This document shows positions 3,446 to 17,374 of a DNA stretch of 64,000 nt, piece by piece. Each line of letters begins with the position of its first letter. Position 1 is the first letter of the stretch. The stretch is taken from contig JAFVQC010000028.1 in the NCBI GenBank assembly GCA_017504995.1, positions 707 to 64,706 of the forward strand. The letters are read 5' to 3'. The notes under the pieces are model-generated. The model did no database searches. It worked only from the letters and a program-made list of their open reading frames with translations, and was not told the DNA's origin. The translations under genes and the position numbers were made by a program. Source of the stretch: Clostridia bacterium. GTDB taxonomy: Bacteria; Bacillota; Clostridia; Oscillospirales; CAG-272.

Positions 3446-4666
3446 ATGACGATTTATGACGAGCTGGTTGCCAGAGGACTGATCGCTCAGGTAACCGACG
3501 AAAATGAGATCAAGGAACTGATCAACAACGGAAAAGCCGTATTTTACATTGGCTTTGACCCCACCGCGGACAGTCTGCACGTGGGACATTTCATGGCGCT
3601 TTGTTTGATGAAGCGTCTGCAAATGGCAGGCAACAAGCCCATCGCCCTCATCGGCGGCGGCACGGCAATGATCGGCGACCCCTCGGGCAGAACCGATATG
3701 CGCCAGATGATGACCACCGAGACCATTGCTCATAACTGCGATTGCTTCAAAAAGCAGATGAGCCGCTTCATCGACTTTTCCGAGGGAAAGGCGATCATGA
3801 TCAACAACGCCGACTGGCTGCTTGATCTGAACTACGTAGAGGTATTGCGCGAGGTCGGCTCTTGCTTCTCGGTCAACAATATGTTGCGCGCCGAGTGCTA
3901 CAAGCAAAGAATGGAAAAGGGACTGTCCTTCCTTGAGTTCAACTATATGATCATGCAGTCCTACGACTTTTATCATCTGTACAAGACCATGGGCTGTAAT
4001 ATGCAGTTCGGCGGTGATGACCAATGGTCCAATATGCTGGGCGGAACCGAGCTGATCCGCCGCAAGCTTGGCAAGGACGCCTATGCCATGACCATCAATC
4101 TGCTCCTCAACTCCGAGGGCAAGAAGATGGGCAAGACCCAGTCGGGCGCGGTATGGCTGGATCCCGATAAAACCTCGCCTTACGATTTCTATCAGTACTG
4201 GAGAAACGTTGCCGACTCCGACGTGCTCAAGTGTATCCGCATGCTGACCTTCCTTCCCTTGGAGGAGATCGATGCCATGGATAAGTGGGAGGGCGCGCAG
4301 CTCAACCGTGCCAAGGAGATTCTTGCCTTTGAGCTGACCAAGCTGGTTCACGGCGAGGAGGAAGCGAAGAAAGCGGAAGCAAGCGCCAAAGCGCTGTTCG
4401 GTGCGGGCGCGGAAGCGGAGATCCCCATGACCGAGCTTTGCGCCGCAGACTTCACGGACGGCGTGATCGATATCGGAACGATCCTCGTCAAGGCGGGTCT
4501 CGTTCCTTCCAAGTCCGAGGCAAGGCGCGCCATCGAGCAGGGCGGCGTTTCGGTAGACAACGAAAAAGTCAAAGACGTGCGCGCCACCTTCACGATGGAC
4601 GACCTGAAGGACGGCAAGGTATTCCGCAGAGGAAAGAAAAATTTCCGTAAGGTAACCGTAAAATAA
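3446..4666 (+). CDS. tyrS: Tyrosine--tRNA ligase
   Basis: [30 protein letters not shown] motifs, C-terminal S4 domain. Confidence 0.97.
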
Positions 4667-4679
4667 AGACACGCTTGCG
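4644..4679 (+). repeat. 36-bp direct repeat, copy 1 (tyrS 3' end + left terminator arm)
   Basis: tccgtaaggtaaccgtaaaataaagacacgcttgcg identical to 5302-5337. Confidence 0.95.
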
Positions 4680-4764
4680 GTCCTTCTCATAAGAATATAA
4701 GCAAAAATCGGCGGAGATATTGTTTCTCCGCCGATTTTGTGGTATAATGAGATGGGTGATGGAA

Positions 4765-5274
4765 ATGGACGAACGAAAATACAGAAAAACAACCAGATTA
4801 AAAAGTGCGGATTACGACAGCAACCAAGTCGTGTTCTTAACGATATGCACCAAGGAAAGACGCTGTATTCTTTCCCGCATTGTAGGGACCGGCGTCCTCG
4901 ACGGTCCAAAAATCGAATTAACCGAATATGGAAAAATTGCAGAGAAATACATCAATCAATTAAATAATTTTTATAATGATCTTTCGGTGGAGAGTTACGT
5001 GATTATGCCCAATCACATTCATATTTTGTTATGGGTAAAGGGCAATGAAAATGGACCGTCGAGGACGCCGGTCCCTACAGTTCAGAATACAATTCCCGCG
5101 AAGTTTTTATCAACTTTTAAAAGATTTTGCAATAAAGAATGTGGAAAGAATATTTGGCAATATCGCTCCAACGATCATATTATCCGCAATCGCGAGGATT
5201 ACGAAGAACATTTGCGATATATCTACGAAAATCCTACTCGTTGGTGCTATGATGAATTGTATATCGAAGAATAG
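4765..5274 (+). CDS. REP-associated tyrosine transposase (RAYT, Y1/HUH, IS200-TnpA superfamily) 1
   Basis: RKxxRL..DY, FLTICT, MPNHIH (HUH), WQ..NDHIIR, YIYENP catalytic Tyr motif. Confidence 0.88.
   Translation: MDERKYRKTTRLKSADYDSNQVVFLTICTKERRCILSRIVGTGVLDGPKIELTEYGKIAEKYINQLNNFYNDLSVESYVIMPNHIHILLWVKGNENGPSRTPVPTVQNTIPAKFLSTFKRFCNKECGKNIWQYRSNDHIIRNREDYEEHLRYIYENPTRWCYDELYIEE
4881..5079. repeat. Inverted pair of GTAG-type REPs inside RAYT 1
   Basis: tgtagggaccggcgtcctcgacggtcca (4881-4908) is the exact reverse complement of 5052-5079. Confidence 0.9.
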
Positions 5275-5301
5275 AGATTAAAATTGAAAAATGCCAAAAT
5301 A

Positions 5302-5337
5302 TCCGTAAGGTAACCGTAAAATAAAGACACGCTTGCG
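5302..5337 (+). repeat. 36-bp direct repeat, copy 2
   Basis: Identical to 4644-4679; continues into the complete terminator. Confidence 0.95.
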
Positions 5338-5363
5338 ATGGTTTTCCGTCGCAAGCGTTTTTT
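5329..5363 (+). terminator. Intrinsic terminator (probably the original tyrS terminator)
   Basis: acgcttgcga/tcgcaagcgt stem followed by a T run. Confidence 0.8.
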
Positions 5364-5365
5364 GA

Positions 5366-6082
5366 TTAAAAATGATATAAATTTTGATATCCCGCCATCA
5401 AGCCGTCGCGGTACAGGTGGGCGTCATTTGAGACTTGAAGCGCTCTCGGATAAATGCGCTCCTGCGTCTCGTCAAAATGAATCACGTTCATGCAGGAATG
5501 GCTGATGTCAAAGCGGGTGCTGTATAACGGATACGGAATATCCAACACACTGCTCATAAACAGCATACCGAAGCCTTGATGGGCAAACAGAGCCACCCGT
5601 TGAGGTGCGTCTTTGACCTTGACAAAGCAATTGTTTTCCCTGTCATGGACAAAGCCCAACTCCAAGAATAACTCGTCCACCGCTTCGTTGATCCGTTTCA
5701 ATCCACGCTCAAAGGTATATTCCGAGAAATCGGGGTGTCGATACCATTCCTTCCCCATGGCAATTACCTCGGCAGAATTGAATTTTTCAATAAAGCTCTG
5801 CTTTTGAAACGCCCAACGCCCCTGTGGTGTTCCGCGATCAAAAAAGAAGTCCTTACCCGCAAGATGCTCGTTTGCCCAAGGGCAAGAAATGATCTCCTTT
5901 TTCAACAGCTCCGCCGTAGGCTGCGCCGTCATCATGGCGCGAACCGAATCGGATGCGTAAATCCGATCCAAGCCGTAGGAAACGAAGCGCTTGGCAAGCA
6001 ACCGCGCCTGCTCCTGACCCAAAGGCGTCAAGCTATCGGGATGATAAATAGGGTCTCCGTGACGAACGTAAAAAAACAACAT
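5366..6082 (-). CDS. Histidine phosphatase (phosphoglycerate mutase-like) family protein
   Basis: YVRHGDP, LTPLGQEQA, RAMMTA, FAHQG, NDAHL motifs. Confidence 0.88.
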   Translation of the reverse strand: MLFFYVRHGDPIYHPDSLTPLGQEQARLLAKRFVSYGLDRIYASDSVRAMMTAQPTAELLKKEIISCPWANEHLAGKDFFFDRGTPQGRWAFQKQSFIEKFNSAEVIAMGKEWYRHPDFSEYTFERGLKRINEAVDELFLELGFVHDRENNCFVKVKDAPQRVALFAHQGFGMLFMSSVLDIPYPLYSTRFDISHSCMNVIHFDETQERIYPRALQVSNDAHLYRDGLMAGYQNLYHF

Positions 6083-15097: not shown

Positions 15098-15658
15098 CTA
15101 TTTTTCTATATTCAAACGATTATAGTACCACCGCTTGGGATTCTCATAAATGTATTTTCTACGGGTTTCATAATCCTCTCTGTCACGAACGATATGCTCG
15201 GCAAACGAGCGTTGGAACATTTTCTCTACCCCATATTGTTGCTTACAACTACGCGACGTCAACGATTTAAACGCGCAGATTACATCATCCAAGGTAGGGG
15301 AGGGGCTTGCTCCTCCCGCCTTTTCGTGCAAGAATATAATTACATGAATATGGTCAGGCATAATGACATATTCCTCAATCGTAACACTTGGAAAACGGGT
15401 TTCAATCAACCGTAATTGTTCTTTTACGATCTCACCGCAGGGTTTTAATTTAACCGTAATTTCGGGAGGAGCAAGCCCCTCCCCTACCGCGGGATAGGTT
15501 GTTTTGCCAGTAGCCGTGAGATCTGCTTTAACTATTTCGGATAAAATATGCATTCTGTCCCGTATGCATATCGTAACAAAGTATGCGCCCGCTGAGCTGT
15601 AATCATAATTCTTTAATCTTGTTGATTTTCTTTTCGGCAAATCATTTTCTTTATCCAT
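15098..15658 (-). CDS. REP-associated tyrosine transposase (RAYT, Y1/HUH) 2
   Basis: RKSTRLKNYDYSSAGAYFVTIC, MPDHIH, FKSLTS, FQRSFAEHIVR, YIYENP. Confidence 0.9.
   Translation of the reverse strand: MDKENDLPKRKSTRLKNYDYSSAGAYFVTICIRDRMHILSEIVKADLTATGKTTYPAVGEGLAPPEITVKLKPCGEIVKEQLRLIETRFPSVTIEEYVIMPDHIHVIIFLHEKAGGASPSPTLDDVICAFKSLTSRSCKQQYGVEKMFQRSFAEHIVRDREDYETRRKYIYENPKRWYYNRLNIEK
15293..15488. repeat. Inverted pair of GTAG-type REPs inside RAYT 2
   Basis: ggtaggggaggggcttgctcctcccg (15293-15318) is the exact reverse complement of 15463-15488. Confidence 0.9.
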
Positions 15659-15762
15659 TTTCATCACCCATATCATTATAACACAAAATCGGCAGAAAGA
15701 AAAGTCCTTCTGCCGAAATTTGCAACCATCCTTACGAGAAGCCGCCTTTTGCACGGCTATTT

Positions 15763-16206
15763 TTAGTCGCCTTTCAATTGCTTCAGCTCCGCAAGGAAGG
15801 TTTCGATATCCTTGAACTCACGGTAAACCGAGGCGAAGCGAACGTACGCCACCTCGTCTCTTGCCTTCAGGTGATCCATCACCATCTCACCGATCTGGGT
15901 GGTGGTGACCTCGTTGGTCAAGGAGTTTTGCAATTCATTCTCGATCTCGCTGACGATCTCCTCCGCATTGACGGGGCGCTTCTGACAAGCCTTCAACAAA
16001 CCCGAAAGCAGCTTCGTGCGGTCAAACAGCTCCTTCGAGCCGTCTTTTTTCAGAACGATGATCTGAACGGTCTCCAGCACCTCAAAGGTGGTAAACCGCT
16101 TTTGGCAAGCCAAGCACTCTCTGCGGCGGCGAATGCTGTTCCCTTCCTCCACGGGACGGGAATCGATCACCTTACTATCTCCAAAACCGCATGCGGGACA
16201 TTTCAT
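15763..16206 (-). CDS. nrdR: Transcriptional repressor NrdR
   Basis: [15 protein letters not shown]...[26 protein letters not shown]. Confidence 0.97.
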
Positions 16207-16409
16207 ATCTTTTCCTCCGATAAACGTAGCCTTATTTTGTATCCATTGATCTCTTATATTATAACATAAAACCATCGATAAGTAAAGTGTTTTCAGGGAA
16301 ATCTTTCCTTTGTATGCCAATATTTCTTTTCCTTCCGTCGATCCACTATTGACGGCACGGCACAAATGCGATAAAATAAAGACAAAAAGAAAATCAGGAG
16401 GAGATACGC

Positions 16410-16658
16410 ATGAAAAAACGACAACAAAAAAGCCAATATTCCGTCAGTATCCCTTCCCGCCTTTGTCTCGTCTTTGGACTGTTCGCGATCCTCTGCCAGC
16501 TCTGCTTTCTGTATCTGTGGATATCGATCGAGTCTCCCACTGTGTCTGCCGACGTCCTCGCCCATACCTTCGCGCCACTTTTGGAATATCCCCTCATGAG
16601 CCTCACACTCCTGCTCGGCGGTACATTATTGATTGAATACATACTGCGAAAGCTGTAA
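16410..16658 (+). CDS. Small hypothetical two-TM membrane protein
   Basis: AGGAGG RBS, two hydrophobic segments, followed by a terminator. Confidence 0.65.
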
Positions 16659-16666
16659 AAAGCATA

Positions 16667-16700
16667 AATCCCCTGACAAACACCCTGTCAGGGGATTCTT
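16667..16700. terminator. Terminator between convergent genes
   Basis: aatcccctgaca...tgtcaggggatt. Confidence 0.7.
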
Positions 16701-16714
16701 TGCAATATGAGCAA

Positions 16715-17374
16715 TTATTTTTCGATTTCCTTTGCAATCACCCTCGCGTCAAGGCGGTATCCCTTGCCGCGCTCGGCTTTGATCAAACGGATACCGAAGG
16801 GTTCTTCCAGCTTCCGACGAAGATGGCAAATATACACCTCCGTGAGATTTCCCTCGCCGTTGCTAAGCTCCTCATTGAGACGTTCACGGGGAACAATCGC
16901 CCCCGCCCCTTTTCCAAGACAGAGCAACAACGCCCATTCCTTTGGGGTCAATCGAATCTTGCGATTGCGATAGATCAGCAAACGGTCTTTCTCGGAAAGC
17001 AATCGAATCGTCGGGATTTGCTCCTGTCGATACAATACCGTCTCGGCTTTGGGGCATTCTTCCGTCACGCCACTCTCATACAGCCGACGCACCTTCCGCA
17101 CCGATACGGGCCAAAGCCAACAAGGCTTTGGCGACAAGGCGAGAGCCTCCTCCTCCGAATCGCAAACGATCACCACTCTGCGATCCTTCTGCTCGAAAAG
17201 CGAGTCCGCCGCCTCACGATCCGCGACGATCCAGTCAAATGCCGTCAGATCCTGCGGCAGAGATGAAAAGACCTCCACGGGACAATCGCACGCCTCGGCT
17301 TCCCACGCAAAAAAATTCCGAAAGGCGTCTCGGCTTGATACGACGGCTATTCTGTTTTTCGACTGCTTCGTCAT
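16715..17374 (-). CDS. OmpR-type winged-helix regulator with degenerate receiver-like domain
   Basis: LTPKEWALL...VYICHLRRKLE...RGKGYRL. Confidence 0.8.
   Translation of the reverse strand: MTKQSKNRIAVVSSRDAFRNFFAWEAEACDCPVEVFSSLPQDLTAFDWIVADREAADSLFEQKDRRVVIVCDSEEEALALSPKPCWLWPVSVRKVRRLYESGVTEECPKAETVLYRQEQIPTIRLLSEKDRLLIYRNRKIRLTPKEWALLLCLGKGAGAIVPRERLNEELSNGEGNLTEVYICHLRRKLEEPFGIRLIKAERGKGYRLDARVIAKEIEK

Follow-up and report, generated by a model that had tools for sequence, protein, structure and literature searches.

GTAG-REP hairpin pairs lie in frame around the HUH motif within RAYT-like transposase genes of uncultured Clostridia

Two genes for RAYT-like Y1/HUH transposases in a Clostridia genome each contain a perfect inverted pair of GTAG-footed REP hairpins inside the open reading frame (ORF), in frame and on both sides of the HUH codons, and the same REP sequences are dispersed over the genome. 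The explanation that we favour, at somewhat better than even probability, is that each gene is a compact REPtron, i.e. that each enzyme would have its cognate REPs in frame inside its own gene; "cognate" here refers to sequence identity and correlation. The window, i.e. the whole stretch of DNA that was analysed, comprises 64,000 nt (forward-strand positions 707-64,706) of contig JAFVQC010000028.1 from the Clostridia bacterium MAG GCA_017504995.1. The lineage belongs to the Clostridia (Oscillospirales; CAG-272), and the assembly is 1.6 Mb and 77% complete. Coordinates below are window positions.

Two RAYT-like genes and their internal REP pairs

RAYT 1 (4765-5274, plus strand) codes for 169 aa from its ATG and is a Y1/HUH transposase of the RAYT kind. 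Arm 1 of its REP pair (4881-4908, plus strand), with GTAG at 4882-4885 and the hairpin at 4886-4907, lies on the sense strand and encodes VGTGVLDGP; arm 2 (5052-5079, minus strand) is the same REP in antisense, and the sense strand encodes GPSRTPVPT at this place. Thus, positions 4881-4908 are the exact reverse complement of 5052-5079, with 28 nt per arm and 143 nt between the arms, and if mismatches are allowed the inverted pair comprises 42 nt at 86%. The spacer (4909-5051) includes the HUH codons His84-Ile85-His86 (5014-5022, plus strand). RAYT 2 (15098-15661, minus strand) codes for 187 aa, is 37% identical to RAYT 1 and has its HUH codons at 15344-15352 (minus strand). Its arm 1 (15463-15488, minus strand) is a GTAG-REP on the sense strand of the gene and encodes VGEGLAPP; arm 2 (15293-15318, plus strand) is the same REP on the antisense strand of the gene, and the gene strand encodes GGASPSPT. 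These arms are 26 nt long, 100% complementary and 144 nt apart. The original prediction had described both perfect pairs, including the MPNHIH and MPDHIH encoded by the spacers of RAYT 1 and RAYT 2, respectively, and the in-frame arm peptides, and all of these features were re-derived exactly.

The RNA from 4860-5100 folds at -92.7 kcal/mol compared with -54.3 +/- 4.7 kcal/mol for 200 shuffled sequences (z -8.1); since 0/200 shuffles were as stable, chance is excluded for the RAYT 1 pair. Moreover, each RAYT 1 arm alone forms a GTAG-footed DNA hairpin of -9.9 kcal/mol (z about -4, 0/200 shuffles as good). The RAYT 2 arms form hairpins with 8-bp stems, the energy of which is unexceptional for such G-rich sequence (z -1.4 and -0.3; 20/200 and 74/200 shuffles as good).

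The RAYT 1 cassette starts just past the left copy of a 51-nt direct repeat (4638-4688, plus strand), which contains the last ~30 nt of tyrS, the stop codon and the left arm of a terminator. The right copy (5296-5346, plus strand) is 90% identical to it and leads into a complete tyrS-type terminator (5320-5367). In the 18 congeners searched, the terminator directly follows tyrS and RAYT 1 is absent from this place. From these sequences, the probable insertion site of the cassette is a terminator loop. The congeners searched share only tyrS with this locus and not the downstream gene, and a comparison of the RAYT 1 flanks with 79 fetched loci gave no synteny match.

Upstream of RAYT 1, a hairpin with a 14-bp perfect stem followed by a T run (4704-4738, plus strand) forms the start of a module that is common to all five intact paralogs, and an alignment of the five upstream regions showed that changes in this stem are compensated. 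The hairpin is followed by invariant columns (4740-4767, plus strand) comprising a TGnTATAAT extended -10-like box (4740-4748), a GGGTGA ribosome-binding-like site and the ATG (4765-4767); based on its consensus, we infer that the box acts as a promoter. The counterpart hairpin upstream of RAYT 2 (15689-15716, minus strand) likewise precedes this -10-like box and a matching ribosome-binding-like site.

By sequence and fold, both genes are RAYT-like Y1/HUH transposases. RAYT 1 has HIH at residues 84-86 and YIYENP at residues 152-157; H84, H86 and Y152 are invariant in 63 aligned sequences, and Tyr152 (codon 5218-5220) aligns with the first Tyr of YIY in 4ER8. 4ER8, i.e. TnpA_REP, is also the best PDB match by sequence (E 5e-11) and, as 4er8_A, the top Foldseek match (E 2.7e-7, TMq 0.60), and Foldseek matches 2-30 belong to the IS200/IS605 enzyme superfamily. 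RAYT 1 and RAYT 2 score 54.9 and 67.3 bits against NCBIfam NF047646, both below the cut-off of 80 bits, as do all six matches to this family in the genome. RAYT 2 matches Pfam Y1_Tnp with 25.1 bits (cut-off 23), and RAYT 1 has no match.

In the predicted structure of RAYT 1, pLDDT is <50 only at residues 1-6, 41-44 and 96-104, the latter two being loops formed by the arm 1 and arm 2 peptides, respectively, and the arm 2 peptide has no counterpart in E. coli TnpA_REP (a gap in the 4ER8 alignment). According to PMC3479197, the REP hairpin in 4ER8 is bound by alphaB and alphaC. In RAYT 1, the arm loops lie directly ahead of the helix aligned with alphaC and ahead of the helix that, by topology, is expected to be alphaB. 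Moreover, of five protein segments, residues 106-127 follow REP-arm identity most closely (Spearman 0.61 compared with 0.25-0.44 for the other four segments, kinship ignored), and the helix that follows arm 2 is the first candidate for a determinant of REP specificity. The helix of residues 106-127 also physically adjoins arm 2.

Dispersed REPs and conservation of the arms

Genome-wide, we counted 343 GTAG+hairpin sites compared with 66-205 sites for six control tags. GTAGGG-hairpin repeats number 278, fall into >10 classes and are mostly extragenic, 252/278 lying outside ATG-ORFs of >=150 aa, which make up 82% of the genome. The 26-mer of the RAYT 1 arms has 47 exact genome copies and the 24-mer of the RAYT 2 arms has 29. 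The original prediction that the arms are GTAG-REP sequences is thus borne out, in that they are identical to two abundant dispersed REP classes; its statement that there are no free copies is correct for the window, and the whole genome has hundreds. The only four REPs on the contig of the window are the two arms each of RAYT 1 and RAYT 2. Elsewhere, copies of both arm classes are arranged as inverted doublets and BIME-like clusters, and both orientations of each arm REP are present across the genome. Four REP-cluster loci compared permissively with Rfam matched only weakly, with scores well short of the gathering thresholds, and by this search the free REP doublets belong to no known RNA family.

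In the commonest free doublet (45 pairs, spacer ~93 nt) the GTAGs face inward, whereas those of the intragenic pair face outward, arguing against the intragenic pair being a mere copy of this doublet. Moreover, no free copy of the 199-nt arm-core-arm unit was found in the genome outside RAYT genes and pseudogenes, and the six +/- REP pairs with a gap of 140-159 nt take in the six RAYT loci in which both arms are visible.

The genome holds seven RAYT loci, i.e. five intact genes, one pseudogene and one gene cut by a contig end with a single visible arm, and in 7/7 the homologous position is occupied by REPs of the locus's own class. Their arm classes have 47, 21, 19, 29 and, for the fifth, about 8 genome copies. 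No REP lies within 250 nt outside RAYT 1 or RAYT 2, all nearby REPs being inside the ORFs; paralog C113+ has two REPs of other classes ~200 nt upstream. For the unrelated family G259, 23 matches to the arm REP were counted, two of them being the arms themselves. Since each RAYT paralog has its own REP class, enzyme and REP travel together, in agreement with the original prediction for their specificities. Several abundant REP classes (e.g. one of 35 copies) are without a RAYT in this assembly, which is 77% complete and breaks at REPs, a contig end being no more than 300 nt away from 69/278 of them; the one-to-one matching of arm classes to REP classes is thus incomplete in this assembly.

As the original prediction had proposed, homologous genes were aligned and their arms examined for covariation. 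Among 86 homologous genes from Clostridia MAGs, fetched with an HUH-coding pattern among others, 76 have both arms. The architecture is kept in these genes: arm orientation is uniform in 76/76, arm 1 is in frame 0 in 75/76, and in 42/76 the distance from the start of arm 1 to the VIMPNH-type octapeptide downstream, which holds the HUH codons, is exactly 117 nt, even though paralogs with arms are only 37-40% identical. The arms covary: the 76 genes contain 44 distinct arm-1 sequences, and the two arms match at 24.3/26 positions within a gene compared with 15.1/26 between genes, with 25 or 26 of 26 positions matching in 47/76 genes. In the 61 genes in which the two arms share one folding geometry, differences between the arms fall in the loop (30), the tail (21), the 5' stem (13) and the 3' stem (13), and none in GTAG. 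In 12/76 genes from at least five lineages, stem differences are compensated inside each arm and the inter-arm duplex is broken, and a G-T wobble on the GTAG strand is kept in both arms at eight loci. The compensation within each arm indicates that selection keeps the local hairpins and not only the long stem. Tandem in-frame REP copies (one to four units of 27 nt) and duplications of arm 1 are tolerated with the ORF intact.

At the protein level, roughly 2,900 clusters have E up to 1e-30. Among the 150 best cluster representatives, the arm peptides of 45 would allow a perfect reverse-complement pair, compared with 16/3000 in the null. In a phylum-wide sample, the arms are absent from 22/25 loci with HUH and Tyr motifs, and L035 (53% identity) is also without both arms; because armless relatives keep the HUH and Tyr motifs, the enzyme fold does not need the arms. 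Two cases of a single palindrome were found in Bacillota RAYT-like genes. REP-like peptide signatures may also occur in RAYT-like proteins of other phyla, and carry no weight in this analysis.

Across 61 congeners there are 0-10 RAYT matches per genome, and REP load correlates with RAYT presence (Spearman 0.55, kinship ignored); none of the 17 congeners with >=30 class-A-type REPs is without a RAYT match. The site next to nrdR is occupied by different paralogs in congeners. Thus, rather than the roughly single copy, vertical inheritance and stable position of a domesticated RAYT (groups 2 and 3 of PMC5581495), we found seven loci and shifting sites.

Core-less relics and the weighing of explanations

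Relics that have lost the HUH core occur in at least eight of the congeners, and their breaks are mostly within the arms; of the eight core-less two-piece loci fetched from the 61 congeners, seven are broken in or at an arm. The junctions of the deletions are diverse and make use of short direct repeats, e.g. GGAC, that are common to both hairpins. Two relics are cut directly after arm 1; most relics are out of frame, L135 being the one in-frame case. In the chimera L061, a collapsed A-type pair with an A-type N-terminus is followed by a B-type body from arm 1 onward. No inverted core was detected among ~80 full-length matches and 13 multi-piece loci in the 61 congeners or among the 86 homologs, a set biased by the HUH-coding fetch pattern. 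The inverted unit stays open in 2/76 genes and has stops in 74/76, and an alternative protein isoform made by inversion was rejected on this basis. Altogether, the suggestion that the catalytic segment might be cut, inverted or exchanged by the enzyme itself is partly supported: the relics broken at the arms and L061 would fit cutting and swapping, and inversion finds no counterpart in these sets. The deletions could possibly be made by the enzyme or by hairpin-stimulated slippage. Logan contigs of four metagenome runs also break at both arms; skips at the arms in such contigs were rejected as deletions of this gene, because the two sides are separated by different letters, which belong to other REP doublets of the metagenomes, and a unitig that runs only from arm to arm carries no information on orientation. 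Segment identity in 63 proteins correlates at r = 0.46 between the N-terminal segment, which is short and more conserved, and the core, and at r = 0.73 between the core and the C-terminal segment.

In the compact REPtron that we favour, REP hairpins would be built in frame into two surface loops, before and after the HUH strand. When the gene is single-stranded, e.g. during replication, the sense strand would fold at arm 1 and the antisense strand at arm 2, each into a GTAG-footed hairpin, and the encoded protein would bind and nick these hairpins as it would the dispersed copies. Enzyme and recognition sites would be inseparable, so that each duplication or transfer of the ~0.6-kb cassette would bring a seed REP, and enzyme and REP class would then diverge together. 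Copying between the arms and the dispersed copies, selection for recognition, or both could keep the arms alike. The core, lying between two hairpins that share direct stem repeats, would be lost repeatedly, leaving core-less relics.

The stability of the RAYT 1 stem could instead point to control at the RNA level. An mRNA stem of 26-28 bp around the HUH segment might block translation or be cut by a double-strand-specific RNase, or REP transcripts from elsewhere might pair with the arms, expression falling as REP copies rise. The near-perfect arm match in 47/76 genes would fit such control, and with REPs in both orientations genome-wide antisense partners could be transcribed. However, the 12/76 genes mentioned above keep the local hairpins yet break the long duplex, the G-T wobble kept at eight loci turns into an A-C mismatch when arm 2 is transcribed into mRNA, and the tandem units and arm-1 duplications alter the stem with the ORF kept. 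We consider RNA-level control unlikely as the explanation, although it need not exclude a compact REPtron. The autoregulation by a long mRNA stem in the original prediction is accordingly weakened as a selected feature, and could persist as a side effect or an added control. Passive hitch-hiking, by which REPs inserted in the only two tolerant loops, perhaps by an enzyme acting near its own gene, and evolve in concert with the dispersed copies with no function, would be compatible with the low-confidence loops encoded by the arms, the variable loop length and tolerated tandem units, the fold motifs retained by armless relatives and the REPs reported in other genes in PMC3733652. It accounts poorly for the constancy of orientation, frame and HUH-octapeptide distance across such divergent paralogs, and for both arms being nearly always of one class when the genome offers >10; the within-gene class match is suggested to exceed random draws from the genome REP pool, and the pair persists despite making the core deletion-prone. 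We therefore regard hitch-hiking as rather improbable.

Least of all do we expect a programmed switch, in which the HUH cassette would be inverted or excised, by the enzyme or by recombination between the arms, so as to silence the gene, or paralog modules would be swapped at the arms; its probability seems very low. The stops in the inverted unit would amount to an OFF state, and the breaks of core-less loci in or at an arm, the joining of L061 at arm 1 and the two relics cut just past it are what such a switch would leave, but the core is on the opposite strand at none of the loci compared, the varied junctions with short direct repeats are as expected of slippage, and the relics look like dead ends. 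Finally, the compact REPtron could be extended: the intragenic pair would be both a master copy and a self-limiting device, the enzyme seeding the dispersed family from its own gene, and a duplicated enzyme and its REP drifting together into a new specificity. The REP-coded loops, capping two DNA-binding helices, may help to recognise the enzyme's own hairpin, and the HUH core would eventually be removed by the same activity or by the hairpins, so that each RAYT lineage would bring about its own end, with orphan REP classes and core-less relics remaining. We put this extension forward tentatively and think it unlikely to hold in full.

Comparison with known systems and implications

The genes share with the E. 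coli REPtron (TnpA_REP, 4ER8) the Y1/HUH fold, the HUH and Tyr motifs, the GTAG-footed hairpin unit, the dispersal of REPs in doublets and BIME-like clusters, and REP classes that are enzyme-specific. In the canonical REPtron, as presented in PMC8266576 and PMC3479197, the coding sequence is bordered by palindromes; by contrast, the REP pair described here is inside the ORF, in frame and around the HUH strand, no REP lies within 250 nt outside either window gene, and the genes score below the NCBIfam cut-off, are multi-copy and lie at different sites in congeners. REPIN-RAYT systems of Pseudomonas and other bacteria (Bertels and Rainey; PMC5581495) similarly have inverted REP doublets and one RAYT class per REP class, and here, too, REP load follows RAYT presence. 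The RAYTs in that text are mostly single-copy and vertically inherited, whereas we found seven loci in this genome, and they were characterised through 16-mers in flanking extragenic space, a method to which intragenic REPs are invisible. Also, a REPIN has a short non-coding spacer and many copies, whereas the present pair, arranged geometrically like inverted REPs, has a spacer of 143-145 nt that codes for the HUH strand and occurs only in RAYT genes and pseudogenes.

The IS200/IS605 elements (IS608, ISDra2, IS200) belong to the same superfamily and also have a hairpin-recognising enzyme and a hairpin upstream of the gene, and the present cassette apparently lies in a terminator loop. However, their ends are outside the transposase gene and on one strand, whereas the hairpins described here are inside it and on opposite strands, and copies of a direct repeat of about 45-51 nt stand on either side of the present cassette. 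To our knowledge, such a repeat is not typical of the IS200/IS605 family. No hairpin was seen after the RAYT stop codon, and the similarity of the two closest paralogs ends 3 nt past the stop.

GTAG palindromes that overlap the 5' or 3' ends of tyrosine-transposase genes have been described (Di Nocera et al. 2013, PMC3733652, legends of figures 8 and 9). In the text and legends of that paper, REPs touch the gene ends or sit in unrelated genes, in contrast to an internal in-frame pair bracketing the catalytic motif. No description of such an internal pair around the HUH motif was found in the published texts searched; the reservation in the original prediction that the architecture might already be fully described is thus not substantiated there.

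The basis on which a RAYT pairs with its REP class, and the way in which REPs or REPINs spread, are open questions, and earlier work has dealt with few proteobacterial systems in which the link is made only by REPs near the gene. Here, each RAYT ORF carries a readable "barcode" of a hairpin class that is dispersed in the same genome, giving dozens of natural enzyme/REP pairs (44 arm sequences in 76 genes), several of them in one genome, and thereby a ready-made set for comparing binding and nicking of cognate and swapped REPs and for locating specificity determinants. Surveys confined to flanking extragenic space will miss such REP-RAYT links. Moreover, active-looking REP systems are extended to uncultured gut Clostridia. 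Finally, the genes have a built-in fragility: the catalytic core is lost repeatedly at the hairpins, which may influence how these elements turn over.

Inverted REP pairs inside the RAYT genes

Each of the two RAYT genes of the window encloses an inverted pair of REP hairpins, here called arms. In RAYT 1 (4765-5274, + strand), the arms (4881-4908 and 5052-5079) are exact reverse complements of 28 nt separated by 143 nt, while those in RAYT 2 (15098-15661, - strand; arms at 15293-15318 and 15463-15488) are exact reverse complements of 26 nt separated by 144 nt. In both genes, every arm has a GTAG foot ahead of a short hairpin and is translated in frame, and the spacer of either pair codes for MP(N/D)HIH. 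Recomputing coordinates and complementarity thus bore out the original prediction of perfect in-frame pairs around this motif. The RNA of 4860-5100 has a predicted folding energy of -92.7 kcal/mol compared with a mean of -54.3 for 200 shuffles (z -8.1; none equal). As ssDNA, each RAYT 1 arm folds by itself at -9.9 kcal/mol, which 0/200 shuffles equalled; the RAYT 2 arms also fold, yet 20/200 and 74/200 shuffles of the same G-rich sequence equal them.

Scanning one genome per species gave 604 candidate stretches and 437 confirmed relatives. The best 79 of the 437 loci, all from Clostridia, Oscillospiraceae or Eubacteriales MAGs and largely from ruminant gut, were retrieved and combined with five loci of the window's genome and the two window genes into a set of 86 genes, 76 of which contain both arms. 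Among the other ten, five are cut by the end of the contig or locus (L005, L026, L040, L043, L075), two have both arms (L004, the genome's own pseudogene, and L045, with a variant motif), one is a chimera (L061), L080 lacks arm 1 and L035 has neither arm. In 75/76 genes arm 1 begins in frame 0, so that its GTA codes for Val; arm 2 ends in that same frame in 72/76, and in 42/76 arm 1 lies exactly 117 nt upstream of the VIMPNH-type octapeptide that contains the HUH codons. Arm-1 sequences are diverse (44 distinct ones in 76 genes), and the two arms agree at a mean of 24.3/26 positions inside one gene compared with 15.1 across genes; 23/76 pairs are perfect and 24/76 have one differing position. 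Aligned for arm covariation, as the original prediction had proposed, the 76 genes thus have arms that are alike within a gene and divergent across genes. In total, we conclude that the intragenic REP pairs are real, conserved and specific.

The arms in the RAYT protein

RAYT 1 and RAYT 2 share 37% protein identity. Their top family match is NCBIfam REP_Tyr_transpos, with 54.9 bits for RAYT 1 and 67.3 bits for RAYT 2, both of which miss the cut-off of 80, and only RAYT 2 passes the Pfam Y1_Tnp threshold. Compared with solved structures, a profile of the paralogs had one match, the PDB entry 4ER8 of E. coli TnpA_REP bound to REP (E 5e-11). Moreover, 4ER8 was the top Foldseek match of an AlphaFold model (mean pLDDT 79), followed by IS200/IS605 transposases. 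Based on the family and profile matches together with the Foldseek ranking, we therefore conclude that both proteins are RAYT-like Y1/HUH transposases, though outlying ones.

In the model, internal pLDDT values below 50 occur only at residues 41-44 (arm 1) and 96-104 (arm 2), and in the alignment to 4ER8 arm 2 corresponds to an insertion of extra residues. The alphaC region of 4ER8 is matched in this alignment by the helix that directly follows arm 2 (110-126); by topology, alphaB would correspond to the helix following arm 1 (54-64). According to the description of 4ER8 in PMC3479197, the REP stem is bound by alphaB and alphaC. Among five protein segments, residues 106-127 best track REP-arm identity (Spearman 0.61 vs 0.25-0.44 in the other four; 1,953 gene pairs, with statistics that ignore relatedness).

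The arm-coded loops tolerate change. In L009 and L011-L014, the arm-2 region past the HUH strand contains one to four 27-nt REP units, in frame and in tandem, and L021 and L074 have a duplicated arm 1. In L074, a stop codon follows the first arm 1 copy. In two other families (G107:C98 and G166:C2), the RAYT-profile match is interrupted by ~100-190 extra nt at the post-HUH loop, a loop that may be prone to insertions in general.

Dispersed REPs and distribution of the arrangement

As originally reported, the window has no free REP copy, and its contig contains the four arms only. Across the assembly (1.617 Mb, 121 contigs, 77% complete), both arm sequences are dispersed in many copies: the RAYT 1 28-mer has 39 exact copies and 118 with up to 6 mismatches, and the RAYT 2 26-mer has 29 and 76, respectively. 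Scanning for a tag plus hairpin gave 343 sites for GTAG compared with 66-205 for six control tags. These GTAG sites group into more than 10 REP classes with compensatory stem differences, the largest having 47, 35, 29, 21, 19 and 19 copies. While long ORFs span 82% of the genome, 252/278 GTAGGG-type sites lie outside them, and 69/278 are no more than 300 nt away from a contig end. REP sites pair as inverted doublets, most frequently with the GTAGs inward and a conserved spacer of ~93 nt (45 pairs); this spacer is kept across REP classes and is found in both orientations. They also occur in BIME-like alternating clusters of mixed classes, e.g. positions 250-850 of L129 (C109:6700-7700 of the window's own genome). 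No Rfam family matched the doublets or clusters.

In 61 congener genomes, RAYT matches were detected in 45 (0 to 10 per genome) and class-A-type REPs in 50; their counts correlate (Spearman 0.55), and all 17 congeners with at least 30 class-A-type REPs have a RAYT match. The family comprises 2,911 clusters (50% identity, E up to 1e-30). The arm peptides of 45 of the 150 best representatives can be encoded by a perfectly complementary DNA pair, compared with 16/3,000 when arms were drawn from different proteins. In a phylum sample, 66/301 genomes have a RAYT match, and 25 retrieved loci have the HUH and Tyr motifs. Only L091 has a split pair, and its REP has 23 matches in its genome. In the post-HUH loop, the more distant homologs L099 and L103 each have one perfect GTAG..CTAC palindrome of 28 nt, in frame, at +57..+84 and +87..+114 nt from the start of the HUH octapeptide, respectively. 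The L099 palindrome has four sites in its genome (G217), none more than 5.4 kb from the gene, and that of L103 occurs once in G018. Neither a split pair nor a single palindrome was found in the other 22/25 loci.

Rearrangements, competing explanations and cassette behaviour

In the genus table, eight loci in eight genomes, all of which were retrieved, have the N-terminal and C-terminal pieces adjoining and the HUH core gone. L133, L137 and L139, as well as the chimera L061, retain the outer parts of both arms, leaving a short GTAG..CTAC palindrome. The deletion begins within arm 1 and ends past arm 2 in L134, L135 and L138, and ends in arm 2 in L136; the break in L140 has no relation to the arms. 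L135 (G360:C65) has a 111-aa in-frame ORF that lacks the HUH core and joins the RAYT N-terminus and the first 13 nt of arm 1 to the C-terminal part with the Tyr motif. Because the junctions differ, the deletions are separate events. Several junctions lie at short direct repeats, e.g. GGAC, which is common to both hairpins because each hairpin is itself a palindrome. Two further relics, L145 (G305) and L146 (G353), are broken directly after arm 1. In both, the N-terminus and arm 1 are followed by the same unrelated sequence with a TTGACA...TATAAT-like promoter, suggesting that the two genomes share one relic locus. Finally, L061 joins an A-type N-terminus and a collapsed A-type pair to a B-type body starting at its own arm 1. 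Of the suggestion that the enzyme could cut, invert or swap its core, cutting and swapping may thus find a counterpart in the core-less relics, mostly broken at the arms, and in the chimera; inversion does not.

A programmed switch, in which the core would be inverted or excised, is disfavoured since no core on the opposite strand was found among the 86 genes or the genus-table loci. An inverted unit would remain open in only 2/76 genes. Passive hitch-hiking of the REPs is another rival explanation. RNA-level control by the long mRNA stem, also a rival, was weighed against differences between the arms, which in 61 same-geometry genes fall in the loop (30), tail (21), 5' stem (13) and 3' stem (13), and never in GTAG (0). 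Stem differences occur in 12 genes from at least five lineages and are compensated inside each arm in 12/12, preserving the local hairpins and adding mismatches to the inter-arm duplex. Similarly, in eight loci both arms retain a G-T wobble on the strand that carries GTAG, which in the mRNA copy of arm 2 becomes an A-C mismatch. Although the long mRNA stem stays compatible with these data, the mismatches count against it, and the in-arm compensation and the retained wobble favour a strand-symmetric DNA hairpin as the probable selected object.

By tblastn, the genome has seven RAYT loci (five intact, one pseudogene, one truncated by a contig end), all with REPs at the homologous position. REP class varies by locus, i.e. 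ACCGGCG-type in RAYT 1, ACAGGCG-type in the C84 paralog, a mixed pair in the C113+ paralog, GAGGGGC-type in RAYT 2 and GCGAAC/GCGACC-type in the C113- paralog, and these classes recur among the dispersed REPs. The five intact paralogs (37-94% protein identity) share an upstream module (4704-4767 for RAYT 1, 15656-15716 for RAYT 2, and in L001, L002 and L003) made up of a hairpin whose stem changes are compensated, a TGnTATAAT box and a GGGTGA site before the ATG. The RAYT 1 cassette is bracketed by a 51-nt direct repeat (4638-4688 and 5296-5346, 90% identical) that copies the tyrS end and the left arm of the tyrS terminator, and is therefore located in the loop of that terminator. Among the 18 congeners searched, none has a RAYT beside tyrS, and the tyrS matches end at its stop codon; in three congeners inspected, a terminator directly follows that stop. 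The nrdR-adjacent site that holds RAYT 2 carries other paralogs in two MAGs (L008, L048), and different RAYT classes thus occupy one chromosomal position in different genomes. DNA upstream of RAYT 2 (15720-16720, nrdR side) is 78% identical to L008 433-874, upstream of a RAYT 1-like gene, and 67% identical to L048 401-825, upstream of another paralog.

Term searches of the main texts of Nunvar 2010, Bertels 2017, Quentin 2018, Di Nocera 2013 and Corneloup 2021, and full-text searches of the openly accessible literature, turned up no description of REPs inside a RAYT reading frame; the nearest statements there, in Di Nocera 2013, concern flanking repeats overlapping gene ends and REPs in unrelated genes. 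Judged from sequence, the best reading, which we hold with slightly more confidence than doubt, is that of a compact REPtron, i.e. a RAYT gene whose cognate hairpins would lie inside the gene. Given the tyrS insertion and the varying occupants of the nrdR site, we conclude that these RAYT genes resemble mobile cassettes in their behaviour more than single-copy domesticated RAYTs.
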